Source: Candidatus Levyibacteriota bacterium | Lineage (GTDB): Bacteria > Patescibacteriota > Microgenomatia > Levybacterales > UBA12049 | Reading direction: 5' to 3' | Assembly (NCBI GenBank): GCA_029260965.1 | Contig: JAJDCG010000001.1 | Span: forward strand, 20,803 to 84,802 | DNA: 64,000 nt | In this document: one piece after another, positions 6,090 through 61,837 of the stretch | Numbering within the stretch: the first letter of the stretch is position 1 | How the letters are laid out: every line of letters starts with the position of its first letter | Position numbers and translations under genes: made by a program | The notes under the pieces: model-generated | Database searches by the model: none | The model's input: only the letters and a program-made list of their open reading frames with translations | What the model was told of the DNA's origin: nothing

Positions 6090-6797
6090 TTATCTCTGTT
6101 TTAGGTTTATTATTAGCGGATTAAAGTCAGTCTTTTTATCAAAATAATCCTCGTTCTCAGCCTTTTTTACTTTAGCAACTGCATAGTATGTGACCGGTGT
6201 CATTACAGTCTCTACCATTACTTTCAACAACCAGCCTGAGAGGATTGTCTGAAATAACAAACCAGATGGTATAACATTTGACAGTGCAATAGAATAAAAA
6301 AGAACCGTGTCAAAAAACTGTCCGGCGATTGTGGACCCTATCGTTCTTGTCCAAAGATATTTTCCTTTTGTCATCACTTTCATCTTTGCCAAAACAAAAT
6401 CATTGACAAATTGTCCTGCAAAAAAAGCAATTAATCCTCCCACAACTATTCTAGGCGCCTGCCCAAATACAATCGTATATGCGTCATTAAATTTGAATCC
6501 AAGAGCCGGTGGCATAATAACTACAAAGGTGTAAATTACCGCTGTCAAAATCTGAGCAAATATCAATATCCATGTTGCGCGCCTTGCGTGTCTGTATCCA
6601 TAAACCTCGGTTAATAAATCCCCTATTAGGTAAGTTAAAGGAAAATAAAAAACTGTTACCGAAACAGGAAAGATCCATAGTTGGGTTATTTTCCCAGCAG
6701 TAGTATTGGCAATTATTATCATCGCCACATCAAGCCAGATGATAAGCTCTAAATACTTGTATGCCTTATTGGAGCTATTCTTTAAATAATTTTTCAT
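6090..6797 (-). CDS. Queuosine-precursor transporter family (YhhQ/COG1738, DUF165) membrane protein
   Basis: Motif PLTYLIGDLLTEVYGYRHARRATW matches the conserved YhhQ-family core (..TYxxxDxxxEVYG...A); about 6 TM helices, 235 aa. Confidence 0.6.
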   Translation of the reverse strand: MKNYLKNSSNKAYKYLELIIWLDVAMIIIANTTAGKITQLWIFPVSVTVFYFPLTYLIGDLLTEVYGYRHARRATWILIFAQILTAVIYTFVVIMPPALGFKFNDAYTIVFGQAPRIVVGGLIAFFAGQFVNDFVLAKMKVMTKGKYLWTRTIGSTIAGQFFDTVLFYSIALSNVIPSGLLFQTILSGWLLKVMVETVMTPVTYYAVAKVKKAENEDYFDKKTDFNPLIINLKQR

Positions 6798-6841: not shown

Positions 6842-7567
6842 ATGTTAAAATTAATCATGACCAATTATTTGCTGCGCTCACTTACGCCTCAATCTATTGA
6901 GATCTACAAAGCATTACTCAAGAATGATAAGCTAACAGCTAAAGACATTGCAGAAAAACTAGATATCCTCCCCCATGCAGTTTACCGAAGTATTAAGCAG
7001 CTACTTGAGCTTGGCTTTGTTCGCGAACTTGATACGTACCCAAATGTCTATGATGCAACCACACTTGAGCGCGCGCTCAATCGCTATCAAGTAATAATAA
7101 GTGATAATTTTAACTCCATATTTGGACTTATTCAGCATAATAAAAACGAGCTACTTGATATCTCCTTTATCCAAAAAAGATCTCAGCTTCTTGACATGAC
7201 AAATGCAGATGTTGAGCGTGCAAAGAAAAAAATAAACTTTATTGTATCTGGATTTGAAGTACCTGCCGAGACTGTTCGCGTTTATAAAAAAGCGATTGAT
7301 AGAGGGGTCAAAATCCGCGTTCTTATTCAGGAATTAAACCAAAAAGAAATATTTAAAAATTGGCAAAAAATGGGTATAAAAGTCAAATATTTTCCCAGAA
7401 TGGAGGCCAGGATTTTTATTTTTGACGAAAAAATAGTCTTCTTCACATCATACGATAAAAAGCACAAACAAGAAGCCATTGGTATGCGATTTAACCATCC
7501 CCCATTTGCCAGGATGATGAGGGAGATGTTTGATGCGAGATGGAAAGTTGGGGAAGAAATTGATTAA
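6842..7567 (+). CDS. TrmB-like HTH transcriptional regulator
   Basis: N-terminal winged-helix segment IEIYKALLKNDKLTAKDIAEKLDILPHAVYRSIKQLLELGFV typical of TrmB family; C-terminal effector-like domain. Confidence 0.55.
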   Translation: MLKLIMTNYLLRSLTPQSIEIYKALLKNDKLTAKDIAEKLDILPHAVYRSIKQLLELGFVRELDTYPNVYDATTLERALNRYQVIISDNFNSIFGLIQHNKNELLDISFIQKRSQLLDMTNADVERAKKKINFIVSGFEVPAETVRVYKKAIDRGVKIRVLIQELNQKEIFKNWQKMGIKVKYFPRMEARIFIFDEKIVFFTSYDKKHKQEAIGMRFNHPPFARMMREMFDARWKVGEEID

Positions 7568-9456
7568 TTTTTGACAGGTACTGTTGCCAAACCTTTTTTA
7601 ACACCTATTAATTTAATAAAATCTTCAGAATCAATTGTTTCTTTTTTGAGAAGCTCCATAGCAAGAGTATCAAGCTTTTTTCTAAGCTTCACCAAGACCT
7701 CATTTGCCTTTTTGTAGGCTGCATCAGATATTTTTTTAACCTCTGCATCAATTTTGGCAGCCATTTCTGGTGAAACATCTGATTGTTCATAAATTGATCT
7801 ACCTGAATCGTATGTAATAGGACCCAAATCGCTCATGCCAAATTTGGTTACCATAGCTCGAGCAACCTGAGTCGCCTTGTCAATATCATCACTAGCTCCA
7901 GTTGTAATATCTTTAAAAACAAGACTCTCCGCAGCGCGCCCTCCCATCATCACAGCAATCTGCTCAAGAAGATGCGCCTTGGTCTCATGCACTCTTTCTA
8001 TTGATTCAGTCATCGTGTGTCCCAGGCTCATACCACGTGAGACAATTGAAATGCGATGGATTGGATCAACATGGGGCATTTCCCAGGCAACAAGTGCATG
8101 TCCTGCCTCGTGATAGGCTGTCATCTTGCGGTCATGATCTGACTGAAGCCTTTTTTTCTCAGGACCCAATTTAACACGTGTTGCTGATTCTTCAAGATCA
8201 GCCATGTCAATTGCTTTTTTAGAGTGTCTTGCTGCTGCAATTGCTGCCTCATTGAGCATATTCTCAAGATCAGCGCCCGAAAATCCAACAGTTCTCTTGG
8301 CTACTTTTTGCCAATCAACCTTACCATCAAAGGGCTTACCCTTAGCATGAATCTCAAGAATTTTCTTTCTTCCCTCAACATCTGGCAGATCCAAAACAAC
8401 TCGACGGTCGAATCGACCAGGCCTTACTAATGCGGGATCCAAAACGTCTGGTCTATTAGTTGCTGCCATCACAATAACATGCTCGTTTGGTGTAAATCCA
8501 TCCATCTCAACTAAAATCTGATTAAGGGTCTGCTCACGTTCATCATGGCCTCCCATCATGCCAACTCCCCGCTGACGACCAATTGCATCAACCTCGTCAA
8601 TGAATATTATTGCAGGCTGGGCTTTTTTGGCAGTATTAAATAAATCACGAACTCTGCTTGCACCCACCCCAACAAGCATTTCCATAAATTCTGAACCTGC
8701 CATTGAGAAAAAAGAAACCCCGGCCTCACCTGCTGTAGCTCGTGCCAAAAGCGTCTTGCCGGTTCCAGCAGGTCCAACCATCAAAACTCCTTTGGGGGTT
8801 CTAGCACCCATGGCGCGATATTTAACTGGACTTTTTAGAAAATCAACAATCTCAGCAAGCTCTTGCTTAGCCTCGTCAACTCCTGCAACATCAGCAAAAG
8901 TGACCTTGGGGTTATCTTTATTAAAAAGCTTGGCCCGAGACTGACCAAAAGAAAAAATACCCTCCTGTGCTCCTCGTGCCTGACGAAAAATAAAATAGAA
9001 AAACCCGATCATCAGAGCAATTGGGAGAACAGCTGAGAGAATACCAAACAAATTATTCATAGCAGTCTCATCCCTAACCGTTACCTTGGTCTTATCAAGA
9101 CTGATTCCTGCATCTCTAAAAATTGTATAAATATTTGAGCCGGGCTCTTTTACAGACTCAAACTCTTTATCGTCTTTTGTAGTTACTGTCAGTTGCTCAC
9201 CATTGATAGAAATCTCCTTAACATTACCCTTCTCGACCTCATCAATCACCCGTGACAAGGGTTCATTATTCTGCTGATCAGTTGTTGCACCTATTGCAGA
9301 GAATGTAAAAAGTGAAAAAAGAAGAAGGGTGCCATAAAGAAGTATGTTTTTCCAAGAAAAACCGCCTTTATGCTTATGGTTTCTTCTCTTACTGTTTGGG
9401 GAAAGCTTCCTACCTCGTACTACTGCCATATTAAAGTAGTTGTGAGTATAGCACAA
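7564..9456 (-). CDS. ftsH: ATP-dependent zinc metalloprotease FtsH
   Basis: N-terminal TM pair, AAA Walker [14 protein letters not shown], Walker [13 protein letters not shown], zinc motif HEAGHAL. Confidence 0.92.
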
Positions 9457-9465
9457 AAACTAGAC

Positions 9466-10767
9466 TCATGAAAGAGCGAGCACTTCTCTCTTAAACTGTT
9501 CCCCACGGTCTTTGTAGTTAGCAAACATGCCAAAACTCACACACCCAGGTGTTAAAATCACCACATCGCCAGAACGAGCAACTTTTGCTGCAGCTGAAAC
9601 AACAGTTTTCATATCTGTCGCATCCTCAATAATCAAGATCTTGGATCTTGGATCTTGAATCTTGGATTTGATCTCGTGCCACTCATCCCCAATACCAATA
9701 ATTGCTTTTATGTTTTTTGCCTCTCTTACCACTCTTCCAAGATCACTAAAATCATTTTTTCTTACTCCTGATCCTCCAAGGATTAATATTTCAGGAGAAT
9801 TAAACGCCTCAATTGCAGCAATTGCCGTTTCAGGCGTGGTTGAAAATGAATCATCATAATACTTCACGCCCCCTATCTCACGAACCAACTCAAGCCTATG
9901 CTCCAAACCTTTAAATGATTTCAAAACTGAAATTATATTTTTTGTCGAAACCCCCACAGTATTTGCAGCCATAACAGCAGCACAAACATTCTCATAATTA
10001 TGCTTTCCAGGAAGTAAGATTTCCTTGGTATCCCCGATCTCATTATCACTACCATTTTTGCGAACAATCACTTTTCCTCCTATTACAAAACAACCATTAT
10101 CAGTCTCCCTCTCACGCGAAACATAGAAAACTTTTCCTTGTGTTTCAATATCAGATTCGTTGCTTGCAGGATAGTCTCTGTTAACTATTGCAAAGTCATC
10201 AGCTGTTTGAAAACGCAAAATGTTTCTCTTTGCATCTATGTATTCTGATAAGTCTTTATGATGATCTAAATGATCTGATGTGATCATGAGAACTACAGCG
10301 ATATGTGGGCTTTTTTTTAGGTCTTTTAACTGAAAACTAGATAGCTCCAGCACAGTCCACGAATGAGTATCTAATTTATCCAAAAAGTTAACTGCAGGCT
10401 CTCCTATATTGCCACCCAGATATGCATCAACTCCTTCTTTTTTTAACATTTCATAGATAAGACTGGATGTTGTACCTTTTCCTTTTGTTCCAGTCACTCC
10501 TATTGCTTTTCCTTTTGCATTACTCAGAAAAATATTTGTTAATGTTGTATATGAGATTTGGATAAGTTCTGATTTCACACCAGGAGATTTTATCGCCAGA
10601 TCATAATCTTTTTGTCTATCCAGATAACCAGCCCCGTCCTTTTGATCAACTATTCCTATCTCTGCATCAGGAACATATTTTTTCAAAAACTTCTCTGCAG
10701 CATGTCCTTCCACTCCATAGCCGACAATTAAAATTTTTTTATTTTTTTTAATATCTTCGATTTTCAT
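9466..10767 (-). CDS. murD: Mur ligase, UDP-N-acetylmuramoyl-L-alanine--D-glutamate ligase-like (MurD or MurD2); carries in-frame heptad-repeat insertion
   Basis: Rossmann N-domain KKILIVGYGVEGHA, Mur ligase P-loop GVTGTKGKGTTSSL, C-terminal Mur ligase domain; in-frame repeat at 9634-9671 encodes KSKIQDPRSKIL. Confidence 0.8.
   Translation of the reverse strand: MKIEDIKKNKKILIVGYGVEGHAAEKFLKKYVPDAEIGIVDQKDGAGYLDRQKDYDLAIKSPGVKSELIQISYTTLTNIFLSNAKGKAIGVTGTKGKGTTSSLIYEMLKKEGVDAYLGGNIGEPAVNFLDKLDTHSWTVLELSSFQLKDLKKSPHIAVVLMITSDHLDHHKDLSEYIDAKRNILRFQTADDFAIVNRDYPASNESDIETQGKVFYVSRERETDNGCFVIGGKVIVRKNGSDNEIGDTKEILLPGKHNYENVCAAVMAANTVGVSTKNIISVLKSFKGLEHRLELVREIGGVKYYDDSFSTTPETAIAAIEAFNSPEILILGGSGVRKNDFSDLGRVVREAKNIKAIIGIGDEWHEIKSKIQDPRSKILIIEDATDMKTVVSAAAKVARSGDVVILTPGCVSFGMFANYKDRGEQFKREVLALS
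9634..9671. repeat. Tandem heptanucleotide repeat (GATCTTG)x3 plus two degenerate units, in-frame inside murD
   Basis: caagatcttggatcttggatcttgaatcttggatttgatc; flanks (aataatNa...ggattt) match the copy at 2820-2866. Confidence 0.85.
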
Positions 10768-12095
10768 ATTGTTAGTATTTGCTGGAATTCATGAGAAAGA
10801 TTATGCGCCCCTGATGTCTCAAAAGATTCTTCCAATAACTTTTTACTATCCATCCTTGTTAAGACATCTGATACAAAAAGTCTCATAGCTTCGTCTTCTT
10901 CATATTCTCCTTTTTTATGTGCTTTATAAAAGGCTATTTTTACCTCAGCAGGTGTTCCCACGCAATCAAAAGGCTTTATTGCGGATTCCCCCAAAAGCTC
11001 TTTGTAAGTCTCTAAAAGTTCTTTTTTTGCAAATAAATTTTCTCCAAAAATCTCAATCAATCTCTCCTTTGCTAAAAAAGCAGCAAGTAATGAAAAAACA
11101 AAAGCACATTTTGCGCACTCTCCACACCATTTTTTATCAGTTGTTTTGTTTATGGCAAAATTTCTGTTGCAGCTTGAAAAACTAGAGAAATATTTATCAT
11201 ATCTTGAAAAAATCTCAGCAATTTTTATCTCACTAAATGGTCTGAGAATTGAAAAATAACATACATCAGGTGTCACAAATTTCTGCAGATATTCTCCAAG
11301 CATGCACTCAAACTCAAACGACTTGCTCCACTGATGATTTATTTCCTGATCCAAATATCTAACGTTTCCATAACTTGATGATCTCTCATTGGCAACAATC
11401 ACATTTTTATAATCATAAAGTACTGCTGAAAAAACTCCGACAAATGCGTAAATAGCAGAGATTGGAACATGTCCGTTTTGAACATCTTTTCTCTTGTTAA
11501 GCTCAAAAATCTGTGGATCAAGAATTCTTTTTATATTTATTCCCCTTTTTCCAACCAGATTCATGACTTCATCCTGCAGATTTGTTTTCTTGAGAACAAA
11601 ACAGTCAAACTCACGACCAATTTTTTTCAAAAGCTCTGCGGCAACAATTGACTCCTTTCCTCCTCCCATGCCAAGCAGTGACCTTTCCTGACGTGGCAGC
11701 GAAACAGAAGTTGGAAAAACGTTATCTGAGTATGGAAAAGATATCAGACCTCGAAAATCAATTTGGTTTTTATAAAAAAACTCACCAAGGCCTTTTGTAT
11801 AGACTGTATTCCAAAATCCTGCTTGATTTTTTGAGAGAGCAAACTTTTCAATAATAATTTCGCGGGGGCAAAATACTTTGTAATAGCTGATGCCCAGGAT
11901 CAGATGCAGGCTCTGTAATACATTTTCTAAAAGCTCTTTTGGGATATCTGTATCAAAGGGCTTTGGAAACTCAAGCGTCTCTCTGAGCTCAATTTCTTCT
12001 CCATTGTGGTTGATCTGATAATCAAATTCTGCGACTCCTGTCTGCGGATCCCAAGTATAATTCTTGAAAATAAATGCGCTCTTCTCCATCTCCAT
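10764..12095 (-). CDS. Hypothetical protein with degenerate PP-loop (GGGKES) and Cys cluster CGECAKC; translationally coupled to murD; candidate MurL-like ATP-dependent enzyme
   Basis: LLGMGGGKESIVAAELLK resembles PP-loop SGGxDS of QueC-type ATP pyrophosphatases; CxxCxxC about 180 aa downstream as in QueC; 4-bp overlap with murD start. Confidence 0.4.
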   Translation of the reverse strand: MEMEKSAFIFKNYTWDPQTGVAEFDYQINHNGEEIELRETLEFPKPFDTDIPKELLENVLQSLHLILGISYYKVFCPREIIIEKFALSKNQAGFWNTVYTKGLGEFFYKNQIDFRGLISFPYSDNVFPTSVSLPRQERSLLGMGGGKESIVAAELLKKIGREFDCFVLKKTNLQDEVMNLVGKRGINIKRILDPQIFELNKRKDVQNGHVPISAIYAFVGVFSAVLYDYKNVIVANERSSSYGNVRYLDQEINHQWSKSFEFECMLGEYLQKFVTPDVCYFSILRPFSEIKIAEIFSRYDKYFSSFSSCNRNFAINKTTDKKWCGECAKCAFVFSLLAAFLAKERLIEIFGENLFAKKELLETYKELLGESAIKPFDCVGTPAEVKIAFYKAHKKGEYEEDEAMRLFVSDVLTRMDSKKLLEESFETSGAHNLSHEFQQILTI

Positions 12096-12126: not shown

Positions 12127-12200
12127 ACTATTTTTGTACCAGGGGCGAGATTCGAACTCGCGACCTGAGGTTTATGATTCCTCTGCTCTAACCAACTGAG
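12127..12200 (-). tRNA. tRNA-Met (anticodon CAT); elongator or Ile2-lysidine type cannot be distinguished by eye
   Basis: Cloverleaf read by hand: acceptor GCCAGGG/CCCTGGT, D-arm GCTC-AGTTGGTTA-GAGC, anticodon loop ATCATAA, T-arm GCGAG-TTCGAAT-CTCGC, discriminator A; 74 nt. Confidence 0.75.
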
Positions 12201-12272
12201 CTACCCTGGCGTGATCACAAGTATACCAAGTTGACCACGCACAAATCAAATGCTATACTAGCTTTCTAATAC

Positions 12273-12339
12273 GCGGGGTAGTGTACGGTGCACGTGAGGC
12301 TCATAATCTCACAGGCTAGGTTCAACTCCTAGCCCCGCA
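12273..12339 (+). tRNA. tRNA-like gene with CAT anticodon and unusually short D-arm (67 nt)
   Basis: Acceptor GCGGGGT/GCCCCGC, anticodon arm TGAGG-CTCATAA-TCTCA, T-arm CTAGG-TTCAACT-CCTAG, discriminator A; only about 14 nt between acceptor and anticodon stems. Confidence 0.5.
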
Positions 12340-12397
12340 ACACCGAAATTCTTTGTTAAAATCGTGGGTACGAACCCCCCCTGGTACAATATAGCTA

Positions 12398-12643
12398 ATG
12401 TGGTATATTTATATCCTTCTCTGCTCTGACAACAGCCTCTATACAGGCGCGACAAACGATATTGCCAAGAGGTTTGAAACGCATAAAAATGGCAAAGGTG
12501 GCGCCTATACCAGATCTCACAAAGTACTAAAAATAATCCATAAGGAGAAATTCAAATCAAAATCCGAAGCGCTCAAACGTGAAGCTGAGATCAAAAGCTG
12601 GACGCGTAAAAAGAAACTAAAAAGCTTAAAGCTAAAAATCTAA
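12398..12643 (+). CDS. GIY-YIG nuclease superfamily small protein (UPF0213/YhbQ-like)
   Basis: WYIYILLCSDNSLYTGATNDIAKRFETH is the GIY-YIG core. Confidence 0.8.
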   Translation: MWYIYILLCSDNSLYTGATNDIAKRFETHKNGKGGAYTRSHKVLKIIHKEKFKSKSEALKREAEIKSWTRKKKLKSLKLKI

Positions 12644-15411: not shown

Positions 15412-16692
15412 ATGGGCAACAACCAAAAGTCAGCACTCGATGATGATTTATTTGAAGAATTTAAAAATCTCTATTTTGATGACTACGAATACTTAGCAAT
15501 AGAAAAAATCGTAAAAGAAAAAAATAAAAAGGACTTCTTAAACGAAAAGATTGAAAATCCAACTTTTGAATATCCCTTGCTTGAATCCTTTGATTTCAAA
15601 ACAAGAGAAAAAGGATTTGAGAATTTAAAACAAAAAGTTAATAAAAATAAAAACCCAGTCGTGCGACTTGCATACACAAAACGCATTGATGAGATGCTCA
15701 TACAAATACAGATGCTAAAAGCCTCAAAACTAAGTGATGATCTTAAATTTAGTGAGTGTTCAAAACTTGTTTATGGAGATCCAAAACCTGAAATATTTGA
15801 ATATGATAAGAGAGTTGTAAAAATAGCTACTCATGAAGCTTTTGATTCAAAAGATTCAAAACGTATAAAGGCAGCAGAAAAATTACAAAACCTTCTGGGT
15901 GATTTATCTTACGATAAATCTATCGAAGAAAAACTAAACCTATTGCCAAAACCATCAAAAGACACAGGCAAAATTCTTAATTCTATCGAGATAAAGTCGG
16001 TTTTTGAAAAAGCGGTTGAAGAGATGAATCTTAAAAATTGGTCTGTAAAAATTGACACCACAGGCATTTTAACAAATCTAAATGCCAATCAGGAAACAAA
16101 AACAATAAATATACCTACGGATAAAAATCTGAGAAATAGAGAAGCACCTACCACAAAGAAAAATGTTCTTGCATTAATTGCCCATGAACTTGGAACACAT
16201 GCCAGAAGACGAGAAAATGGAGAAAAAAGTAAATTAAAACTTCTCGGTCTTGGACTTGATAGATTCCTCAAAGGCGAAGAAGGGCTTGCGTCTTTTGCAT
16301 ACCAGCAAATTCAAGGCGCCAAGAATTTTGCAGGATTTGGAAGTCATTTCTCAGTATCAATTGGCGTAGGGCTTGATGGAAAGAAAAGAGATTTTAGAAA
16401 AGTTTTTGAAATACTAAAACTTTATTTCCTGACATCGATTGAACCAGATATAGATAGACTAAAACAAGCAGAAAACCTTGCATGGAACACTTGTGCGAGG
16501 TGTTTTCGTGGAACAACCTGCAAAACACCAGGCGCTCTATTTACAAAAGGACATATCTATAGTGAAGGAAACATCAATATCTACAAACTAATTGCTTCTG
16601 GATCAAAAGAAATTGAGAGATTCATAATCGGAAAATATGATCCGATAAATAAAAACCACATCCAAATCCTTGACCGATTGAGAATAATATAA
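15412..16692 (+). CDS. DUF1704 / QEGLA-motif protein (flavohemoglobin expression-modulating family; putative zinc carboxypeptidase-like)
   Basis: HExxH-like HELGTHARR followed by GEEGLASFAYQQ (QEGLA motif) about 60 aa later. Confidence 0.55.
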   Translation: MGNNQKSALDDDLFEEFKNLYFDDYEYLAIEKIVKEKNKKDFLNEKIENPTFEYPLLESFDFKTREKGFENLKQKVNKNKNPVVRLAYTKRIDEMLIQIQMLKASKLSDDLKFSECSKLVYGDPKPEIFEYDKRVVKIATHEAFDSKDSKRIKAAEKLQNLLGDLSYDKSIEEKLNLLPKPSKDTGKILNSIEIKSVFEKAVEEMNLKNWSVKIDTTGILTNLNANQETKTINIPTDKNLRNREAPTTKKNVLALIAHELGTHARRRENGEKSKLKLLGLGLDRFLKGEEGLASFAYQQIQGAKNFAGFGSHFSVSIGVGLDGKKRDFRKVFEILKLYFLTSIEPDIDRLKQAENLAWNTCARCFRGTTCKTPGALFTKGHIYSEGNINIYKLIASGSKEIERFIIGKYDPINKNHIQILDRLRII

Positions 16693-18763: not shown

Positions 18764-18768
18764 TTTAG

Positions 18769-18841
18769 TGGGCCAGGGAGGACTCGAACCTCCGACATGG
18801 AGTGTATAAGACGCCCGTTCTAGCCGCTGAACTACTGGCCC
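18769..18841 (-). tRNA. tRNA with apparent anticodon TAT (would read AUA, Ile); C29:U41 mismatch in anticodon stem
   Basis: Acceptor GGGCCAG/CTGGCCC, D-arm GTTC-AGCGGCTA-GAAC, anticodon arm GGCGT-CTTATAC-ACTCC, T-arm GGAGG-TTCGAGT-CCTCC, discriminator A. Confidence 0.6.
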
Positions 18842-18886: not shown

Positions 18887-21280
18887 CTAGAGGCGTGAAC
18901 GCTTACCTATTTCCGACTCCACTACGTCAACAGCTTTGCCATATTTTAAACGTGAAAGCTCTTTTACAAGCTCGGCAACTCGTGAATTCTCGAGTACTTT
19001 TTCTTTCGAGATATCCTTTGTCGTATCAAGAGAAAATGGTGTCACTGGCTCACCCTGAACAATAGTCCGCATATAAGCATTATATTTGTCTACATTTATC
19101 AAATCATTCTCATTGAATGTAGGCTGGAATTCGTGCTGAAGATAATTTGCATCCGTCACACCAACACGGAATGAGGCAATCGTACCTACATTTCCAAAAA
19201 TAGCATTTTTGATCTCCTCCTCCATTTGTCCAATAAACTGATTAGCAACGATCAAATTCAAACGATATTTACGTGCCTCAGAAAGAATTTGCGCAAAATC
19301 AGGCGTTGCAAAATTCTGAAACTCATCAACATAAAGAAAAAAATCTTTTCGCTTTTCCATATCCATATCTTGCCTGCTCATTGCAGCAACCAAAATACGT
19401 GGAACGAGAATAAGACCAAGAAAGTTTGAGTTTTCCTCACCTATCTTTCCTTTTGACAGATTTATAAGAAGTATTTTTTGGGTATCCATCACGTCCCTGA
19501 AATTGAATGAACTCTTTGACTGACCAATTATATTACGTATCATTTTGTTGGTAACAAAACGACCAAATTTTGACGTAATGTAATCAAGAACTTCTGATTT
19601 ATGAAAATCAGAAGTCTGGGCAATCTGATCAGTCCAATACCTTCTAATAATCGGGTCATCGACCTTGGGTAACAATTCCTGCACATATGATTGATCTGTC
19701 AAAACACGCACAACTTCTATAAAAGTCGAACCCTCCTCTGACATAACTGTTAACATCGCATTTCGCACCGCATGCTCAAAACGAGGCCCGACAATACCAG
19801 TCTTATTTGGATCAAACAGCTTGTACATCAAGCCAATTATTGAGTTTGCCATGAAATGTTTTTGCTGCTCAGTTGACGCTTCCAGCATATTTACTCCAAG
19901 TGGTCTGTCTGTATCTGATGGATCAAAAAGTATGACATCTTCTGCTCTATTTGGAGGGATTACTTTGAGTAAATCCTCAATAAGATCACCATGGGGATCT
20001 ATAACTGCCAAGCCTTCACCAGCATTAATATCTTGCATGATCATTGTTTTTAAAAATTCAGATTTTCCAGTACCAGTCTTACCGATGATATACATATGTC
20101 TTTGTCTGTCATATTTTTCAATATGAACAGGACGAGTTATGCCACGAAATGTGCTTTTACCCAGATACAGACCTGTTGTTGGTATTTTTGAAGGCGCTGG
20201 AGCACGCTTGGCGTTGAGCCAATGAATACCTGGAGTTGTAATAGATTTGTTGGGAAAATGAAAAATAGTAGCCAGCTCCTCACTAGTCATTATTGACACT
20301 TGTCCCCAGAGAGGAAAATAACGATATATAAAATCATTCATAAACCAACCCTTCATGAGATGCGTGTTTTTCTTGAATGAATTAATACCTGATGAATACT
20401 GGGTAAACGCTCCTTTTATATTTGAAAGATGGTCCTTGGCTGCCTCGGTTGTCTTTGCTGAAACAACTATCCTAACTACTGTTTCAAATCCTGGTTTTGT
20501 TAGCTTATTTTCAATTCCCTCAAGCTCCTTGCTGTCTGCTTTGTAAGATGCCTTCTCAGGATTTGCTTCATTTTTCTTTGTTGCTCCGATATATGAACGC
20601 CCTTGCTTTTTCCATTCATTCCCAGCAGGCGAGACAAGAATCTGAATCACTGCTCCCTCACCTTCACCCATCTTAGCTAAAATCGACGTTACAGATGAAA
20701 GAGGATCAACGGGTAATTCTTTATAAATCTTTATAGGCATGTATTCTGCTGTTCTCAGTTTCAAAGATGTAAATTCAACCTTTCCATCTTCAGAAAAGAT
20801 ATTGTATTCTGAGCCGATCACAGTTCCTTTTGTCTGTTTTGCTGACGGATCATCAACCATTGTTATCTCTGCCTCTGGATATGCTCCATTTATCTGCTTC
20901 TCAACAAAATCTCTAATCTTTTTCGAAACATGAATATAAAACCTGATGTCTCCTGGAAGACCAACTATTTCAAATGCTATATGAGGTTGAGATTTGAAAA
21001 AAACAAGCTTATCCGAATACTTGGTAACACGAAGCGCTGAAAGTGCGGCAAACATTTGTTCTGCTGCATCTATTTTGGTCTCATTATTTTTGGGAACTGC
21101 CACCTGCAGAAGAACTGAAGAAAGAGATTCCTCTTCACGCTTTCTATATCGGATCCAAAGCAAGATAATGTGATAAATGGCGATTATTAAAATAATCCCA
21201 AATCCTGTTGCAAGTATGAATACTGAGATTGTCATAACCATACTTCCTGAGTCTGATGATGCCTGATTTATAAAATCCAT
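18887..21280 (-). CDS. Type IV secretion coupling-protein-like ATPase (VirD4/TraG/TraD, TrwB_AAD_bind-like; FtsK-HerA superfamily) with N-terminal TM
   Basis: N-terminal hydrophobic helix, Walker A YIIGKTGTGKSEF about residue 400, Walker B FFLYVDEFQNFA; 797 aa. Confidence 0.55.
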   Translation of the reverse strand: MDFINQASSDSGSMVMTISVFILATGFGIILIIAIYHIILLWIRYRKREEESLSSVLLQVAVPKNNETKIDAAEQMFAALSALRVTKYSDKLVFFKSQPHIAFEIVGLPGDIRFYIHVSKKIRDFVEKQINGAYPEAEITMVDDPSAKQTKGTVIGSEYNIFSEDGKVEFTSLKLRTAEYMPIKIYKELPVDPLSSVTSILAKMGEGEGAVIQILVSPAGNEWKKQGRSYIGATKKNEANPEKASYKADSKELEGIENKLTKPGFETVVRIVVSAKTTEAAKDHLSNIKGAFTQYSSGINSFKKNTHLMKGWFMNDFIYRYFPLWGQVSIMTSEELATIFHFPNKSITTPGIHWLNAKRAPAPSKIPTTGLYLGKSTFRGITRPVHIEKYDRQRHMYIIGKTGTGKSEFLKTMIMQDINAGEGLAVIDPHGDLIEDLLKVIPPNRAEDVILFDPSDTDRPLGVNMLEASTEQQKHFMANSIIGLMYKLFDPNKTGIVGPRFEHAVRNAMLTVMSEEGSTFIEVVRVLTDQSYVQELLPKVDDPIIRRYWTDQIAQTSDFHKSEVLDYITSKFGRFVTNKMIRNIIGQSKSSFNFRDVMDTQKILLINLSKGKIGEENSNFLGLILVPRILVAAMSRQDMDMEKRKDFFLYVDEFQNFATPDFAQILSEARKYRLNLIVANQFIGQMEEEIKNAIFGNVGTIASFRVGVTDANYLQHEFQPTFNENDLINVDKYNAYMRTIVQGEPVTPFSLDTTKDISKEKVLENSRVAELVKELSRLKYGKAVDVVESEIGKRSRL

Positions 21281-44629: not shown

Positions 44630-44716
44630 GGAGGGATCGCATAGTGGTCTAGTGCGCGGGCTTGGAAAGCTCGTATGGTCGAAAGACTATCGGGGGTTCG
44701 AATCCCCCTCCCTCCG
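44630..44716 (+). tRNA. tRNA-Ser (anticodon GGA)
   Basis: GGAGGGA...CGGGC-TTGGAAA-GCTCG...long variable arm...GGGGG-TTCGAAT-CCCCC-TCCCTCC-G. Confidence 0.8.
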
Positions 44717-44758
44717 CAACTTGACAACACTATCAAAATACCTCACACTAAAATAGCT

Positions 44759-47011
44759 ATGCTCTCTGCCCGCAAAGTCTTCTTATCTTTTTGTTTGTTT
44801 TTAGTTACATTTCTTGCAGCTCCATCCTTATCTTTTGCCCAATTACCAACATCCAATCTTAATCCAGAAGTCCCACGCAACCAACACACCCTCGCACAAT
44901 CAACAATGATCGAAATAATGTCTGCAGTCATTTGCCAAATGACAGGCATAGATCCACTTTATCCAGAACAGGGTTGTCTAGGGTTCAATACAGAAACAAA
45001 AAAGTTAGGACTTATACCTCCAGAGTATGATGATAATGGCAAACTTCAGGCAGGAGGGATGTTGGGGGGCACATCGGATATGATTGCAGCACTTTATACA
45101 CCAATTACATCTACTACAGAATTTGTGCACTATATGACGCGCGATTTTGGAATCGTAAAAGACGCTAATGCACAGGCAGGATATGGTTTTCAAGCACTCA
45201 GTCCAGTACTTGCTGTCTGGGAAGTTGTCCGTAACGCAGCCTACACCCTTCTGGTGCTTGCATTCGTTTTCATTGGCATCGGCATTATGCTCAGGGTCAA
45301 AATCGACCCCAGAACAGTTATGGGTATTCAAAACCAAATCCCTAGAGTCATAATTGCAATACTTCTTATCACCTTTTCCTATGCAATCTCTGCTGTGCTG
45401 ATTGATATGATGTGGGTCACAACATATGCAGGAGTAAACCTGCTCACAAACGCCCAGGGAGAAAGTATCAAGGTTGATTCCTGTAAGTCCACAAACAACA
45501 AAGTAGGAATAGCAGAACAAGTAAATAAAAATATTCTTCAGACACCAATGACCTTCTTCCATCAAGTATTTGCTGAATGCGACGACAGCGAACAGGAGGG
45601 AGTTTTACAGGGAAGGGGATACCTACAGGGCAACAACAGGGACGGCGGATTTCATGTAATGACCAAAGCAATAGGGGGTGCTACGGGACAATTGATTAAT
45701 AATACTGTAAGAAGTATTTTTCTTGACGAAGACGATGAATCAAGAGACTGTGGTTTGCTCAGTACGCTGGGGAATCCAATCCAGTGTGTTAAAAAGGGCC
45801 TGATTAATGGACTTGGTTTTTTTGCAAGCCTTCTCACAACTATCATCATCTTTACAGTCCTCCTTACCACGCTTTTTAGAATCTGGTTTATGCTTCTGAA
45901 GGCGTTTGCCTATACTCTTATCTACACAATCACCGGACCCATCTATATCGCGTTTGGGCTTCTACCTTCAAAACCGCTTGGATTTGAAAAATGGCTTCGT
46001 TCAATATTTGCAAACCTTGCGGTTTTTCCTCTGACTGCTTTTCTATTGGTAGGAGCCAGGCTTATGGTTGGTCTTTATGAAAACGCCTCAACTACTGCGT
46101 TCACACCACCGCTTCTTGGGAATACCGCAAACACGAACTATGGTGTTTTAATTGCACTAGGCATCCTTCTCCTAGGGCCTGCAATAGGAGACATCCTACG
46201 AGACAAGATGGGTGCACAAAATCTGAAAACACCTGGCATTGTCAAAACAGGACTGATACTTGGTGCTGCACCAGTTGGGCAGCTTGCCAATAGAATAAAA
46301 GCCAATGCCACAAGACGCGATAATGCAGGAAATCCAATCGGCAGCTTTTCAGCTGGCGTGGAGCGCAGCACTTCTGCTGCCAAACAATCACTTGGAAAAA
46401 TACCGATTATAAAAAGTCTAGGAGGAGAAAAATATGCCATTAATGAAGCTGAAAAACGCACCAACAGGCAGCGCTATGGAATGGCCGCAACCAATAAACA
46501 AATCCTTAAAAACAACGAGCATTTTGGTCTGGAAAAAGTAAAAGGTAAAGCAAAACTCAAAAACGGAAATACTGTCCAAAGTGCTAGCGATTATCGAAAG
46601 TGGGTAGGTGAAATGAGCACGGATGATAGAAAAAAACACATACAAGACGTGATGGGTGGCAGGCGCTTGGGCGCACATGGTTGGTACGGAGACGAACACG
46701 CATCAAGAACTGGAGGAGAAAGGGGATCAGAAGGTAGCAGCAACCAAAATAGCAGCACAAACATAAACACTCCTCATGTAACCATAAGGGCAGGAAGCAT
46801 CGAGGGTCTGCATGAACGTATGGATGAAAAATTAAGAAACAGCACGCCTGAAGCAAGAGAACGATTCCAAAACAACTATCATGCAAAAACTGCTAATAAG
46901 TTCATCAACAAAGATCAATCCTCTTACAGCACCGAGGAGCGAGAGGAAGCAAAACGTGTTCTCGAGGAAATACTCAGCGAAGAAAACGGGGATGGGAACA
47001 ACTCTGCTTGA
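44759..47011 (+). CDS. Large polytopic membrane protein with signal peptide; possible VirB6/TrbL-like T4SS channel component
   Basis: Signal peptide MLSARKVFLSFCLFLVTFLAAPSLSFAQ, at least 6 TM helices, long hydrophilic C-terminal tail. The track start at 44675 overlaps tRNA-Ser, so I use the ATG at 44759. Confidence 0.35.
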   Translation: MLSARKVFLSFCLFLVTFLAAPSLSFAQLPTSNLNPEVPRNQHTLAQSTMIEIMSAVICQMTGIDPLYPEQGCLGFNTETKKLGLIPPEYDDNGKLQAGGMLGGTSDMIAALYTPITSTTEFVHYMTRDFGIVKDANAQAGYGFQALSPVLAVWEVVRNAAYTLLVLAFVFIGIGIMLRVKIDPRTVMGIQNQIPRVIIAILLITFSYAISAVLIDMMWVTTYAGVNLLTNAQGESIKVDSCKSTNNKVGIAEQVNKNILQTPMTFFHQVFAECDDSEQEGVLQGRGYLQGNNRDGGFHVMTKAIGGATGQLINNTVRSIFLDEDDESRDCGLLSTLGNPIQCVKKGLINGLGFFASLLTTIIIFTVLLTTLFRIWFMLLKAFAYTLIYTITGPIYIAFGLLPSKPLGFEKWLRSIFANLAVFPLTAFLLVGARLMVGLYENASTTAFTPPLLGNTANTNYGVLIALGILLLGPAIGDILRDKMGAQNLKTPGIVKTGLILGAAPVGQLANRIKANATRRDNAGNPIGSFSAGVERSTSAAKQSLGKIPIIKSLGGEKYAINEAEKRTNRQRYGMAATNKQILKNNEHFGLEKVKGKAKLKNGNTVQSASDYRKWVGEMSTDDRKKHIQDVMGGRRLGAHGWYGDEHASRTGGERGSEGSSNQNSSTNINTPHVTIRAGSIEGLHERMDEKLRNSTPEARERFQNNYHAKTANKFINKDQSSYSTEEREEAKRVLEEILSEENGDGNNSA

Positions 47012-47035: not shown

Positions 47036-50000
47036 TTATCTTCCTTCTGATGTCTGTATAGCACCTTTTAGCAGAGTGCCCAATACAGCCAGGTATGTAG
47101 CCAGGCCTATCCTGCTATCAGGACTTCCTCTTTGTCCCAAAAACGCTTCTTTCAAAGCACTCCTGAGCGTAGAGCGCAGCAGTGATGTTTTGGTTATATT
47201 CCCAAACCACTGCATCTCTTCTTGTTCATAATATCCTGGTATCAGCCTGACATCACCTAGACTAAATTCGCTCCCTAAAATATCTTTTGGCAAAGTTTTG
47301 AGCGCGTCTGCGACAGTCAGAAAATATGCCTCATTATATCGAGAATCCGTCATCGAATAGCTTCTGAAGCTTACGAATTTAGATGCCAACTCTGTAAGCA
47401 CAGCTCTTCTTACAAGAAGCTTCATATGTTTTGGGTCATTTAGCTTGTTATAATCTATCTTTATTCGCCCATCAACATCCTTTACGACTTTACCTTTTTT
47501 ATCTCTCATCCAAAAAGAACTGCTGTTGAGCAGGTCATAACCAAACATATGCTCACCCAGAGTCATGTCTCGCCATATAGCCTCACCTGCTGTCAGTGAT
47601 GCTTCTTGATCAAGATAGCGATCCTTTTTCGAGTAATCGAGACTACCATAATCAGAAATAAGATATCTATATGGAGTAACAAGCTTTTTCTGAAAATCCT
47701 GTATAAACACTTCTTTTTGAAAAACAGGACCCTGAACAGGATGATGCTCTGTAAAATTTTTAAAATCAAACTCCTCCTTAGCGCTCATTATGTGGTCATA
47801 CATGTCAAGCCCTTTTCCGAGCTGGTCATTTGCCCAATTAAACAATGCATTTTCATTAAATGCTATCCTTCCCGTCATTTTCTGATATTGTTCCTGAAAG
47901 TATCTGGTCAAAAACCTGAGTCCATTTTCTTCCTTCTCTATCTCCGCTTCAGACGCACCCTGCCTCCTCATCTCTTCAATTTTCTTCCTGTATTTCTGGA
48001 GTTGCCTTTCTTGGGCTGTTTTCATTATGTCTGTTTCATCAAACTGTTCTTTTGCCGTGGTGTAATGCCTTCTACCCTCTTTATCCACTGTGAAGTGCAC
48101 TGTGTTTACTCCTCTCCATGTATCAGTAACCAAAGCTTTTTCCTGAAAAGTTCCAGGGTAATAACCGCCAGGATCTCCTTTCTTAAGTACCTTCACACGA
48201 TAAGCCGAAAGATTCATGGCTCTACCAGGGATCGTAACCGAGGGCTCATAGACATCATTTCTTGCCCAAATTAGCGCAGGTGCGGTCATGCCATATGAAA
48301 GCAGATCTGCAAATTTCAGGTTAATTTCATGCTCATCCCCCGTCTTTGTCCTGAGATGGAACTGCTCAGCAACTGTTGCCTTCATCACCTCACGCAAGGG
48401 CAGCACTACTTTTTTATTTTCGTTTTTCTGGACAAAAAAATTAATAAATTTTACAAAATTATCAGCATTGCTTTTGGTGGTTATCTGTCCGTTTTTATCA
48501 AAAGCTTTCACAAACTGTTCATGCGTCTCAAATCCCCAAAAGGCCTGCACTTCTTTTTCCCCTGTTGACTTTGTGCTTTCACCAAGTATTTTCATTAAGC
48601 CCTTTTCCCAGGTTTCTCTTTTGAAAAAATTTGAATCCTGACCTAATATTTCCTGAAGCTTTGAAAAATCAGAAAGCGCATCATAAACTCTGTACATCTT
48701 ATTGTATGCAGCCCCGACATCACTGTCGCTATAAAGAGGTTCTCCTTTTCTGGAGCTCTTGAACTCATTTGGAAAAAGCATCATATGGCTCATCAGGTTC
48801 TTACCCAAGGCATCCTTGGTAAGAGTACTCCCAGCCATCATCTCAGTAATAGTTTCTTTAAACTTTTCTCCATCTGCTCTTACTTTCTTAAGTTGCGCTG
48901 TCTGGGTTAAAAGAGTGGACAAAACCCAGGCTTCTTTTATCCATTGTGCGTAAAGATCGTTATATCTTGTTTCTCCATCTTCTGATTTAAAAAACCCTCC
49001 AGTAGGATTTGCAAACATACTCATAAGATTAGTTAAAGTCCCTCCATAACCTATACGTGCAAGACTTACTTCTTCGAAAAAATTATGTGGATCATCAGGA
49101 TTCAAGTCATACATCTCATACATTTTATTTCTCACCCACTCAACCATATTTCCTTCATTCACATAGTACTTGCTTCTCTCTGCATCAACAACCTTGTGTC
49201 CTTTTTCCATTTTTGTGACAATTCTCATCTCAAGAAGAGGAAATTTATCTGCAATTCCCCATTTATCATGCGATGTAGAATGCATCATGCGCCAAGCAAG
49301 CTCCTCAATGGTATCTGGTGATGCATCATACTCCTCTATGTTAAGGTTACCAGTTGCATTTCTACCTGTCTTGAGAAGTGCTTTGGGGAAAACAAGCCTC
49401 CTAACCCACTCTTCTGGCAAGTCAAGACTAATGGCAACTCCCTTTTTATCATCATCTAGCCACCTGTCATGCTCTCCTGTCAGTATTTTATACTTTTTTC
49501 TCAGATTCTCATTGCTGGATGAATGATCAATTTCTTCACCAGTCTCCCTCTTGTATGCAGCCATTGCTGTTTTGATAGAACTGATGAGCTCATCTGGCTT
49601 CCTGCCTCGAGCCAAAAACATCTCAAGAAGCATCCTTGTCTCATCATCTGAAACATGAAGATTTTTAATAAGCTCCTCTCCTACCTCAACTATTTTCTCA
49701 GTTGGCCAACCATATTCGCTCCAGTCCTCTTTCCTCCAGCTTTTCCTTGCAGCCTTCTGCTCAACCTCACTAGCACCCTCTCTAGCATAGGGTAAATTTT
49801 TTTCACTTCTGAGTACCTCGCCCGGAACAGGCTCATCCCCACCGCCTTCAAGCCTTTCCTGCTCTGTGAAAGCTTTTACTTTCTCTTCAATCTCGTAAAG
49901 TTGTCTATGCGTGCTGGCAAGAACAGCCTCATTACTCAACTCCTCATTTTCCATTATTTCCTTAAACCTTCTTTCCTCTTCGCTTGTAAGTATTTTCTTT

Positions 50001-50311
50001 TGTTTTTCTGCCTTCTGATACTCCTCTTTGGAGCTTGCATTTCCTATAAAGGGTTTTTCTTTGCGGTTGATAAATTCTCTAATTTGATAGTAAAGATCTC
50101 TTGTTCCTGCATCTTGCCGGATTTCATCAAGGCTTCTACCATGATTTTCTTGCACAAATTCATCCCAAGCTTGATATATTTCTCTTGTCTCACTGTTTCC
50201 TTCAAGAACTGCTGCACCTGCTTCTGACATACCTCTATCATATCGACTGGCAGACTGTGGTGTCAATTTAATTTCATGCTCCATAATGATTGGATTGTAA
50301 TCAAAACCCAT
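47036..50311 (-). CDS. Very large hypothetical soluble protein (1091 aa), no recognisable motif
   Basis: Uninterrupted ORF, no signal peptide/TM, embedded between VirB6-like gene and T4SS-like cluster on opposite strand. Confidence 0.5.
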   Translation of the reverse strand: MGFDYNPIIMEHEIKLTPQSASRYDRGMSEAGAAVLEGNSETREIYQAWDEFVQENHGRSLDEIRQDAGTRDLYYQIREFINRKEKPFIGNASSKEEYQKAEKQKKILTSEEERRFKEIMENEELSNEAVLASTHRQLYEIEEKVKAFTEQERLEGGGDEPVPGEVLRSEKNLPYAREGASEVEQKAARKSWRKEDWSEYGWPTEKIVEVGEELIKNLHVSDDETRMLLEMFLARGRKPDELISSIKTAMAAYKRETGEEIDHSSSNENLRKKYKILTGEHDRWLDDDKKGVAISLDLPEEWVRRLVFPKALLKTGRNATGNLNIEEYDASPDTIEELAWRMMHSTSHDKWGIADKFPLLEMRIVTKMEKGHKVVDAERSKYYVNEGNMVEWVRNKMYEMYDLNPDDPHNFFEEVSLARIGYGGTLTNLMSMFANPTGGFFKSEDGETRYNDLYAQWIKEAWVLSTLLTQTAQLKKVRADGEKFKETITEMMAGSTLTKDALGKNLMSHMMLFPNEFKSSRKGEPLYSDSDVGAAYNKMYRVYDALSDFSKLQEILGQDSNFFKRETWEKGLMKILGESTKSTGEKEVQAFWGFETHEQFVKAFDKNGQITTKSNADNFVKFINFFVQKNENKKVVLPLREVMKATVAEQFHLRTKTGDEHEINLKFADLLSYGMTAPALIWARNDVYEPSVTIPGRAMNLSAYRVKVLKKGDPGGYYPGTFQEKALVTDTWRGVNTVHFTVDKEGRRHYTTAKEQFDETDIMKTAQERQLQKYRKKIEEMRRQGASEAEIEKEENGLRFLTRYFQEQYQKMTGRIAFNENALFNWANDQLGKGLDMYDHIMSAKEEFDFKNFTEHHPVQGPVFQKEVFIQDFQKKLVTPYRYLISDYGSLDYSKKDRYLDQEASLTAGEAIWRDMTLGEHMFGYDLLNSSSFWMRDKKGKVVKDVDGRIKIDYNKLNDPKHMKLLVRRAVLTELASKFVSFRSYSMTDSRYNEAYFLTVADALKTLPKDILGSEFSLGDVRLIPGYYEQEEMQWFGNITKTSLLRSTLRSALKEAFLGQRGSPDSRIGLATYLAVLGTLLKGAIQTSEGR

Positions 50312-53000: not shown

Positions 53001-53102
53001 CAAATTCTCCAAGTTTTCACAGACCCAGCCTCAAAGAAAATTTTTTTGATCTACTTTGAAAGAGTTGCAAACATATTTTTCACGTTATACACTTTTTTTA
53101 CT

Positions 53103-54356: not shown

Positions 54357-54359
54357 AGT

Positions 54360-55046
54360 ATGGCACAAAAAATTAACGCGTCTACGCAAAAATTTACAGA
54401 GATTGTTGACTTTGTTGATAATATAGTTGTTCTAGAGGGTGGAAACGCCTGTTTAATCATTGAAATCACTGCAAGTAACTTTGCATTGTTATCAAAAAGA
54501 GAACAAGACTCAAGAGTGGCCTCATATGCATCCCTTCTCAACTCGCTTTCTTTTCCTATACAGATTCTAATACGCAACAAGCGGATGGATATATCAAACT
54601 ACTTAAACGAATTGGATGAGGCAAAGAAAAATTCAAAGAACGATAGGCTGGCAACATACATTAGCTACTACCGCGATTTCGTTGAGGAGATAGTAACTGT
54701 AAATGTAGTTCTGAACAAATCTTTCTTTATTGTGGTGCCATACTCTTTTCTAGAAGGCAACATGCCCAATGCAAGCCAGCCACAACAAGCAAAAAAACAA
54801 AAAGATACTGTTTCTAAGTCTCAGAAAATTGCAGAAAATGCCAAAAGAGCTTTAGAGTCCAAGTCATCAACCGTTATGGCTCAGCTTCAAAAATTTGCTG
54901 TATCTGCAAAAATCCTCGAAAAAGACGAGCTGGTTAAGCTCTTTTATGACATATACAACCAGGGTGACGCACTGAATGTTGAACAAGCAGAGCCAGACAC
55001 TCAGAATGCATTCGTTGCAACAGCAGGAGGAGGAGAAAATACATGA
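54360..55046 (+). CDS. VirB4 N-terminal-domain-like protein (possible split VirB4 or frameshift), coupled by ATGA overlap to VirB4 ATPase ORF
   Basis: VVLEGGNACLIIEITASNFALLSKREQDSRVASYASLLNSLSFPIQILI resembles the N-terminal segment of Gram-positive-type VirB4 ATPases; stop overlaps next start at 55043-55046. Confidence 0.35.
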   Translation: MAQKINASTQKFTEIVDFVDNIVVLEGGNACLIIEITASNFALLSKREQDSRVASYASLLNSLSFPIQILIRNKRMDISNYLNELDEAKKNSKNDRLATYISYYRDFVEEIVTVNVVLNKSFFIVVPYSFLEGNMPNASQPQQAKKQKDTVSKSQKIAENAKRALESKSSTVMAQLQKFAVSAKILEKDELVKLFYDIYNQGDALNVEQAEPDTQNAFVATAGGGENT

Positions 55047-61688: not shown

Positions 61689-61837
61689 ATAATACTTTTT
61701 GTTGTTGTAGTAGTGTATCTGGAAAAGTGGAAAAAAGCAATATTTACCAAATTTTCAGGCATAAAAAAATGTGGATAAAAAGTTGATAAAAATGGGTATA
61801 TCTTGTAGATTAATTTTATTTTTGTAATTATCATAAG
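61689..61837. promoter_or_regulatory. dnaA-dnaN intergenic region with perfect DnaA box TGTGGATAA (61770-61778) and AT-rich unwinding-like tract; candidate oriC component
   Basis: Direct reading; second perfect box at 63242-63250 upstream of dnaA. Confidence 0.55.

Follow-up and report, generated by a model that had tools for sequence, protein, structure and literature searches.

How the D-glutamate (D-Glu) of the peptidoglycan stem is supplied is the question raised by two overlapping genes in a stretch of 64,000 nt, called the window below, of contig JAJDCG010000001.1 (549,591 bp, about 549.6 kb) from a Candidatus Levyibacteriota bacterium. The first gene, murL (10764..12095, minus strand), is an open reading frame (ORF) of 443 aa, and the second, murD (9466..10767, minus strand), encodes a UDP-MurNAc-L-Ala--glutamate ligase of 433 aa. 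A class A penicillin-binding protein and a SpoIID-like protein encoded in the window indicate that the host organism makes peptidoglycan. The two overlapping genes probably form a racemase-independent route to this D-Glu, in which L-glutamate (L-Glu) is ligated first and epimerised afterwards. The two-step pathway is the most economical reading: MurL is intact, is coupled to murD and lies in the slot that the racemase MurI holds in sister genomes.

The MurL (XOO_1319)/MurD2 (XOO_1320) peptidoglycan pathway of Xanthomonas oryzae was reportedly described by Feng et al. in 2017. The window locus adds a member to this known system, from a phylum for which the system has not yet been discussed.

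The murL-murD gene pair

The junction of the two genes reads ACA ATA TGA AAA. The ATG of murD shares 4 bp with the stop of murL (ATGA, 10764..10767, minus strand), as read directly from the sequence, and the overlap is consistent with translational coupling of murL and murD. The initial annotation had noticed this overlap correctly. One detail is to be amended, since murL is the first gene and stands upstream of murD on the coding strand. A 508-kb replicon of Xanthomonas sacchari, found by tblastn of plasmid records, carries an annotated murL followed by murD with a 20-bp overlap, and the order in X. oryzae is XOO_1319 then XOO_1320 (PMC8788868). The window therefore has the gene order of the X. 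oryzae system, and overlapping ends are found both in the window and in X. sacchari. The ligase scored 334 bits on the TIGR01087 murD model (cut-off 212 bits) and also matched Mur_ligase_M and Mur_ligase_C.

Identity and conserved residues of MurL

Over positions 7-443 of the 447 in the NCBIfam model NF041275 (MurL), the 443-aa protein matched with an E-value of 5.7e-117 and a score of 391 bits. Compared with the MurL annotated in X. sacchari, it was 37% identical over its full length (E 2e-94). These comparisons bear out the relationship to MurL that the initial annotation had suspected. Homologues in a large protein collection carried the Pfam domains MurL_N and MurL_epimerase_C, and PF26298 and PF26299 were precomputed on P0001, which is identical to the window MurL, and on every homologue listed. 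Judged by its sequence, the 443-aa protein is an intact, full-length MurL homologue.

The conservation analysis was based on an alignment of 183 MurLs, in which a position was called conserved when at least 97% of the sequences agreed. A total of 59 positions reached this level, of which 54 were also kept in X. sacchari MurL. The window MurL departs from the consensus at only one of the 59, with E in place of D148. The conserved set includes GGGKDS, H209, N236-E237-x-S239, NHQWSK at 253-258, E263, R285, E289, S308-C309-N310, W323-C324, C327, K329, C330, K374-P375, C378-V379-G380 and E384. As with the characterised X. oryzae protein, homology extends over the full length, all conserved motifs are kept and no racemase is found nearby.

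Three motifs deserve attention. The PP-loop variant GGGKES (aa 144-149; 11649..11666, minus strand) corresponds to the family consensus GGGKDS, and its residues G144, G145, G146, K147 and S149 were conserved in at least 97% of the 183 MurLs, X. sacchari included. The four-Cys cluster C309-x14-C324-x2-C327-x2-C330 (11106..11171, minus strand) ends in a CxxCxxC that reads C-G-E-C-A-K-C in the window MurL (aa 324-330). Each of its four Cys was present in at least 99% of the MurLs, and the counterparts in X. sacchari are C311, C327, C330 and C333. Both GGGKES and CxxCxxC had been pointed out initially. The third motif is the invariant (D/E)-C378-V-G (10953..10964, minus strand), which reads ECVG in X. 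sacchari. C378 and G380 occurred in 183 of 183 MurLs, and V379 in 182 of 183. C378 is a candidate catalytic residue, which might take part in alpha-proton exchange or form a thioester intermediate.

Predicted fold and mechanism of MurL

Three parts can be told apart in the protein: about aa 1-130 form an N-terminal domain, about aa 135-300 are a core of the QueC-like PP-loop ATP-pyrophosphatase type, and the C-terminal part has the Cys cluster and helices. An AlphaFold2 model built from 25 homologues had a predicted local distance difference test (pLDDT) score of 92.7 and a predicted template modelling score (pTM) of 0.91. The best PDB matches of this model in Foldseek were QueC (3bl5 and 2pg3; E about 1e-4, TM 0.60-0.63 normalised to QueC). 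The QueC-like proteins QatC and Cap9 (9y01_B, 9nto_B) came next, followed by TtuA, MnmA, ThiI, GMP synthase and NMN synthetase, and the Foldseek probability for PP-loop family matches reached 1.00. All named top matches are PP-loop ATP pyrophosphatases, that is, substrate-adenylating enzymes. MurL is therefore predicted to belong to the QueC-like PP-loop ATP pyrophosphatase superfamily, in agreement with the QueC-like PP-loop proposed in the initial annotation.

In the model, GGGKES follows strand 136-142 and precedes helix 147-158, and it is predicted to be the loop that binds the ATP alpha-phosphate or pyrophosphate. Its counterparts in alignments are SGGKDS in TtuA and SGGQDS in E. coli QueC, the first Ser of SGGxDS being Gly in MurL. 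At the sequence level, the likeness to TtuA and QueC was limited to the PP-loop. A PDB sequence search with MurL gave only a marginal match to TtuA, and no MurL or MurD2 structure was found in the PDB. An hhalign comparison of the MurL alignment with E. coli QueC matched the PP-loop only, with a probability of 2.9%, and so the QueC relationship rests on predicted structure and not on sequence.

MurL shares with QueC, QatC and Cap9 a PP-loop after the first strand, a C...CxxCxxC cluster located C-terminal to the nucleotide-binding core, and, by prediction, carboxylate activation with conversion of ATP to AMP. The pattern C188-x8-C197-x2-C200-x2-C203 of E. coli QueC parallels C309-x14-C324-x2-C327-x2-C330 of MurL. 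The Cys cluster of QueC is a structural Zn site, and by analogy that of MurL is probably one too. MurL differs from QueC in an additional N-terminal domain (about 130 aa), a longer helical C-terminus, GGGKDS in place of SGGxDS, and epimerisation instead of amide or nitrile formation.

Published work on MurL describes a need for ATP and Mg, formation of AMP, unidirectional L to D conversion and no known conserved domains (PMC8788868, PMC5808125). A PP-loop fold is compatible with this ATP/Mg dependence and AMP formation. In the proposed route, MurD would extend UDP-MurNAc-L-Ala with L-Glu, and MurL would turn the terminal L-Glu into D-Glu at the cost of one ATP with release of AMP. The QueC-like domain of MurL would bind ATP and adenylate the alpha-carboxylate of the terminal L-Glu, a step suggested by its fold and PP-loop motif together with the published release of AMP. 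We speculate that the activation acidifies the alpha-proton and makes it exchangeable, perhaps through an oxazolone or a Cys378 thioester. Hydrolysis would then free the D-epimer irreversibly. The predicted fold thus offers a mechanistic frame, carboxylate adenylation, for an enzyme in which PMC8788868 and PMC5808125 name no recognisable domains.

The same fold raises the alternative that the 443-aa protein belongs to the QueC family or is another PP-loop enzyme, acting outside peptidoglycan, in deazapurine metabolism or another carboxylate activation, and that the neighbouring murD is incidental. We regard this as very improbable. The closest solved folds are indeed QueC, QatC and Cap9, but the full-length match is to MurL and not to QueC, and a Pfam scan of the window MurL gave no QueC match at E ≤ 1, in line with the hhalign probability. 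One homologue (P0069) was named 7-cyano-7-deazaguanine synthase by the Joint Genome Institute (JGI), and a Vut_1 transporter gene lies 3 kb away; set against this, the protein shares 37% identity with X. sacchari MurL, and the X. oryzae orthologue of the latter is biochemically characterised. Some MurL-like genes on Pseudonocardia plasmids have no murD neighbour, which would also suit an unrelated role, and the wider distribution of the gene pair bears directly on this point.

Distribution of murL and its coupling to murD

A scan of GTDB, with one genome per species, returned at least 590 MurL relatives, and the best 80 loci were inspected. Five of these loci were truncated, leaving 75 evaluable. 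murD followed murL on the same strand in all 75. The two genes formed single fused ORFs in 36 loci, overlapped by 4 bp in 19 and overlapped otherwise in 12; gaps of up to 200 bp were found in seven loci and a larger gap in one. The locus L097 has the same 4-bp overlap as the window. This adjacency in 75 of 75 loci, with 36 fusions in many Patescibacteria lineages, argues against an incidental neighbourhood of murD and a PP-loop enzyme of other function.

The best 80 loci all came from metagenome-assembled genomes, and every informative record name belonged to Patescibacteria, or the candidate phyla radiation (CPR). The lineages named were Roizman-, Levy-, Woese-, Moran-, Uhr-, Staskawicz- and Peregrinibacteria, among others. 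Some of the 80 were labelled Gammaproteobacteria, Bacillota or Weeksellaceae, which we read as generic or wrong bin labels. The composition and gene content of the other loci showed nothing that contradicts an origin from Patescibacteria/CPR. A second, full scan covered 1.84 billion cluster representatives and yielded 2,661 clusters of MurL at 50% identity, 1,224 of them at E ≤ 1e-30, and about 20 of the best 150 were of fusion length. MurL is widespread in Patescibacteria, and murL-murD coupling is general there, fusions included.

The published distribution of MurL comprises Xanthomonadales, a few Alphaproteobacteria and Micromonosporaceae (PMC8788868), and the host of the window lies outside it. 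No relevant paper turned up in literature searches for MurL or murI in CPR/Patescibacteria. Many Patescibacteria also differ from the X. oryzae system in that the two enzymes are fused, an arrangement unmentioned for the characterised systems in PMC8788868 and PMC5808125. If the route runs through the fusion enzyme, the MurL-MurD fusion could channel the L-Glu intermediate. The MurL/MurD2 route has so far been described as confined to few genera and promoted as a narrow-spectrum antibiotic target. The window locus is part of a much larger MurL set, and racemase-independent incorporation of D-Glu would thus be commoner than pictured. Such a route would suit reduced genomes that avoid a free D-Glu pool.

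Two unusual forms of MurL were also noted. P0510 (878 aa) has its MurL-like region at residues 453-846, a reversed domain order compared with the usual MurL-MurD fusion. The Pseudonocardia alni plasmid pPaSha1 (L084 4959-6359), and likewise H3 and H4, carry MurL-like ORFs annotated as hypothetical, with 30-32% identity, about 90% coverage and no murD neighbour. They may represent a paralogous use of the MurL fold.

The partner upstream of murD

The relatives of the window MurD differ in the gene that precedes it. Only the closest relatives (L103-L105 and L097; 67-72% identity) have MurL upstream. About 38 metagenome relatives with 46-63% identity have MurI immediately upstream, four of them as a fusion. 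The window MurD is also 57-67% identical to the ligases P0133 and P0126, which have MurI directly upstream, and to P0162, a MurI-MurD fusion. No locus among the relatives carries both MurL and MurI. MurL is upstream in the nearest relatives and MurI in the next (46-67% identity), and therefore MurL holds the slot upstream of murD that MurI, the racemase supplying D-Glu, holds in sister genomes. Closely related MurDs with either partner represent a natural experiment on D- versus L-Glu selectivity.

The locus L100 shares the synteny DivIC, integrase, HTH, RadC, murD, ftsH and exonuclease with the window and has no murL at this position. A MurI homologue matches the L100 chromosome by size in bp. 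The window thus shares with the MurI-MurD route the RadC ... murD-ftsH-exonuclease synteny, and differs from it in having MurL instead of MurI as the partner.

Natural MurI-MurD fusions were found in L096 (78-2180), L125, L131, L137 and P0162, and their MurD part is 62% identical to the window MurD. They mirror the MurL-MurD fusions. In L096 the fusion is closely followed downstream by another Asp_Glu_race gene.

No MurI was detected in the 64-kb window, as the initial annotation had already observed. A six-frame search with E. coli MurI (phmmer --max) gave a best E-value of 0.26, and a hidden Markov model (HMM) of E. coli MurI and three Patescibacteria MurIs gave no match at E ≤ 1. A large-database search was then based on the MurI of the nearest MurI-linked relative, and the top 120 matches were considered. 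At least 11 of these were on contigs equal in bp to those of MurI-type MurD matches. None was on contigs of 549,591 bp (the window contig), 413,560 bp, 77,836 bp or 28,695 bp, though a divergent racemase or one on another contig would escape this search. We infer that murI is absent from the genome of the window organism.

One weak match to the Asp/Glu racemase superfamily was seen at L007 4958-5704 (plus strand), 1.5 kb downstream of a MurL-MurD pair. It scored 33 bits, compared with more than 300 bits for a true MurI, and was the sole racemase-superfamily match in 733 kb of MurL loci.

Stereospecificity residues of the ligase

Four differences separate X. oryzae MurD2 from E. coli MurD, namely E197/D182, R358/K348, P433/A414 and F435/L416. 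The MurD2 double mutant E197D/R358K uses D-Glu, and mutagenesis showed that P433 and F435 are not specificity-determining (all from a review, of PMC8788868/PMC5808125). Positions are given below in E. coli numbering. X. sacchari MurD2 has E at 182, R at 348, P at 414 and F at 416. The 75 Patescibacteria MurL-linked ligases showed E (63) or D (12) at 182, R at 348 in all cases, P at 414 in 71 and Y or F at 416. Asp at 182 was also present in some MurL-MurD fusions, and an aromatic residue at 416 (Phe, Trp or Tyr) was found in canonical MurDs too.

The window MurD has D at 182 (D165 of the protein, in TSDHLD), V at 414 (V410) and F at 416 (F412), and F308 corresponds to position 319. Position 348 is ambiguous. 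The segment GGSGVRKNDF contains a one-residue insertion (VRK at 335-337), so that MAFFT sets Arg at 348 and Lys is equally possible. The nearest MurL-linked relatives read GGSSKNSDF, which places Lys there. Nearly all of the 120 closest homologues (57-72% identity) have E182 and K348. Position 182, one of the two published determinants of stereospecificity, is Asp in seven of seven aligned MurL-linked members of the window group and Glu in 29 of 29 MurI-linked relatives. Most Patescibacteria MurL-linked ligases look like MurD2. The window ligase departs from them and, judged by the published residue code, resembles a canonical, D-Glu-adding enzyme.

A residue other than Lys at position 319, together with an STTP motif, was considered as a marker of MurL-linked ligases (Lys in 0 of 75, compared with 10 of 11 canonical references). 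It was rejected, because Phe or Tyr occupies this position in every one of the 120 homologues nearest to the window MurD, the MurI-fused P0162 included. The only canonical reference of the 11 without Lys319 was the annotated murD of the Clostridia 'plasmid' pMM59_01 of Pusillibacter faecalis (L085 506-1882), with Ile at 319, SSP for K-x-T-N, and K348. Several PLSDB 'plasmid' records are clearly chromosomes or chromosome fragments.

Phylogeny and domain history of the ligase

The ligase trees were neighbour-joining (NJ) trees with 100 bootstraps. In the whole-protein tree, a clade with 97% support united the window group with the MurI-linked ligases and with a small set of MurL-linked ones (L007, L008, L011 and L019). 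The large clade of MurL-linked Patescibacteria ligases was separate (89%). A sparse tree had joined the Patescibacteria MurL-linked ligases with X. sacchari MurD2 in a MurD2 clade of 64%, which dissolved to 8% when the MurI-linked relatives were added and was rejected.

The separate domains gave different groupings. In a tree of the N-domain (aa 1-90), the window MurD was placed next to the L007 group of MurL-linked ligases (64%), and in no case with MurI-linked ones. The C-domain, which binds Glu, grouped with MurI-linked ligases. Segment identities of the window MurD showed the same split. Eight positions part the window group from the MurI-linked group, seven of them in or just after the N-domain. 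These seven match residues of other MurL-linked clades, and the eighth is D/E182. The window MurD appears to be a mosaic, with an N-domain of the MurL-linked type and a C-domain of the MurI-linked type. With moderate support, we propose that recombination inside murD went along with the swap of the upstream partner.

Source of D-Glu in the window organism

Several of these results weigh against the two-step pathway. The MurL score of 391 bits is below the 700-bit equivalog cut-off of NF041275, a model that is specific to Xanthomonadales. The ligase has D and not E at 182 and V and not P at 414, and so lacks the MurD2 signature. Its closest MurL-linked relatives combine D182 with K348, the same pair as in the D-Glu-specific E. 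coli MurD. In the whole-protein NJ tree, it sits in the 97% clade of mostly MurI-linked ligases and does not group with Xanthomonas MurD2, as X. sacchari MurD2 joins Patescibacteria in only 8%. The C-domain (aa 291-433) grouped with MurI-linked ligases at 82%, and at 99% with a more distant set. The correlation of D or E at 182 with the partner represents one evolutionary event, and its direction is opposite to that between E. coli and Xanthomonas.

The MurL/MurD2-type pathway of the initial annotation is accordingly upheld for MurL and its coupling to the ligase, and not for MurD2 as a sequence type, given D182, V414, an ambiguous R/K348 and the grouping with MurI-linked Patescibacteria MurDs and not with Xanthomonas MurD2. 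The initial annotation had also named a clustering of the ligase with canonical MurD as evidence against its proposal, and such clustering was partly found, in the form of the 97% clade. L-Glu ligation by the window MurD is inferred from its context and not from its sequence.

These points would fit a window MurD that is still a D-Glu ligase, with MurL as a backup or repair enzyme and with D-Glu obtained from a murI elsewhere or from the host of this probable episymbiont. The C-domain and the D182/K348 of the window group match canonical or MurI-linked MurDs, the canonical MurD of S. mutans takes L-Glu slightly (review, of PMC8788868/PMC5808125), and the one-way L to D action of MurL suits repair (PMC8788868, PMC5808125). 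We consider this explanation unlikely, though far from negligible. MurL replaces MurI at the exact slot upstream of murD in sister genomes, with both present at no locus, and none of the top 120 MurI homologues lies on the 549.6-kb or 413.6-kb contigs of the window group. Tight coupling, with fusion in 36 of 75 loci, suggests an obligate two-step pathway and not occasional repair. Asp182 is fixed in the MurL-linked group, in contrast to Glu in all 29 MurI-linked relatives.

The mosaic history of the ligase also leaves room for an enzyme that uses both L-Glu and D-Glu, an intermediate after a recent swap of murI for murL, in which MurL would remove the need for free D-Glu while scavenged D-Glu is still usable. 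Its mixed signature (D182, R/K348, V414, F416), the lineage-specific VRK insertion at 348 and the finding that a change of one or two residues shifts or loosens stereospecificity (review, of PMC8788868/PMC5808125) agree with this. Such dual specificity is nevertheless improbable, as the window group has diverged to 67-72% identity and kept MurL throughout, which indicates that the arrangement is not very recent.

The racemase-independent two-step pathway therefore remains our preferred reading, and it can be joined with the evolutionary observations in a broader proposal, which we put forward tentatively as possible rather than probable. The MurL route would be a major source of D-Glu in Patescibacteria, often as a fusion, and murL and murI would have been swapped in situ upstream of one murD lineage. 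The N-domain would travel with murL while the Glu-binding C-domain stays. The window MurD would then be an independently evolved L-Glu ligase without the Xanthomonas signature, and it may stand for an independent origin of L-Glu use. It differs from its MurI-linked sisters in its partner, in Asp instead of Glu at 182 and in its MurL-linked type of N-domain. If the L-Glu ligase evolved independently, the switch between D- and L-Glu would be narrowed to a few residues, namely E182D and the VRK insertion at 348. If the N-domain travels with murL, an interaction between MurL and the MurD N-domain would be implied.

Other features of the window

ARAGORN predicted a tRNA-Met gene (CAU; 12136..12210, minus strand) on the strand of murL and 40 bp upstream of it, which probably marks the 5′ boundary of a murL-murD(-ftsH) transcription unit. 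ftsH (7564..9456, minus strand; Pfam Peptidase_M41, AAA and FtsH_ext) begins 9 bp downstream of murD and is possibly co-transcribed with murL-murD. The murD-ftsH adjacency is kept in relatives with murL (L097) and without it (L100). A second tRNA-Met (CAU) was called at 12272-12341 (plus strand), so that two such genes lie between murL and a GIY-YIG ORF (12398-12643). It is only 70 nt long with the anticodon at position 31 and may be atypical or a false call. The tRNA/GIY-YIG insert is absent from the syntenic genome without murL (L100).

The Vut_1 family transporter gene (6090-6797, minus strand; E 3e-47) is separated from the QueC-like MurL by 3 kb, and the Vut_1 family includes YhhQ-type queuosine-precursor transporters. 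The position of this gene is also kept in L097, and its vicinity to MurL is probably a coincidence.

The chromosomal replication origin is probably near one end of the window, where dnaN and dnaA are adjacent (60579-63211) and the sign of the GC skew switches within the last 2 kb, near 62 kb. Type IV secretion-like genes at 18887-21280 and 53046-57187 encode a TrwB/VirD4-like coupling ATPase, a PrgI-family protein and a TraG/VirB4-like ATPase. The large ORFs neighbouring them (44675-47011 and 47036-50311) had no Pfam match. A 426-aa ORF (15412-16692, plus strand) matched Pfam MATCAP, the microtubule-associated tyrosine carboxypeptidase, with an E-value of 1e-23, which is unexpected in such a bacterium. 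A tRNA-Ile gene (18768-18841, minus strand) has the anticodon UAU, which is uncommon in bacteria.

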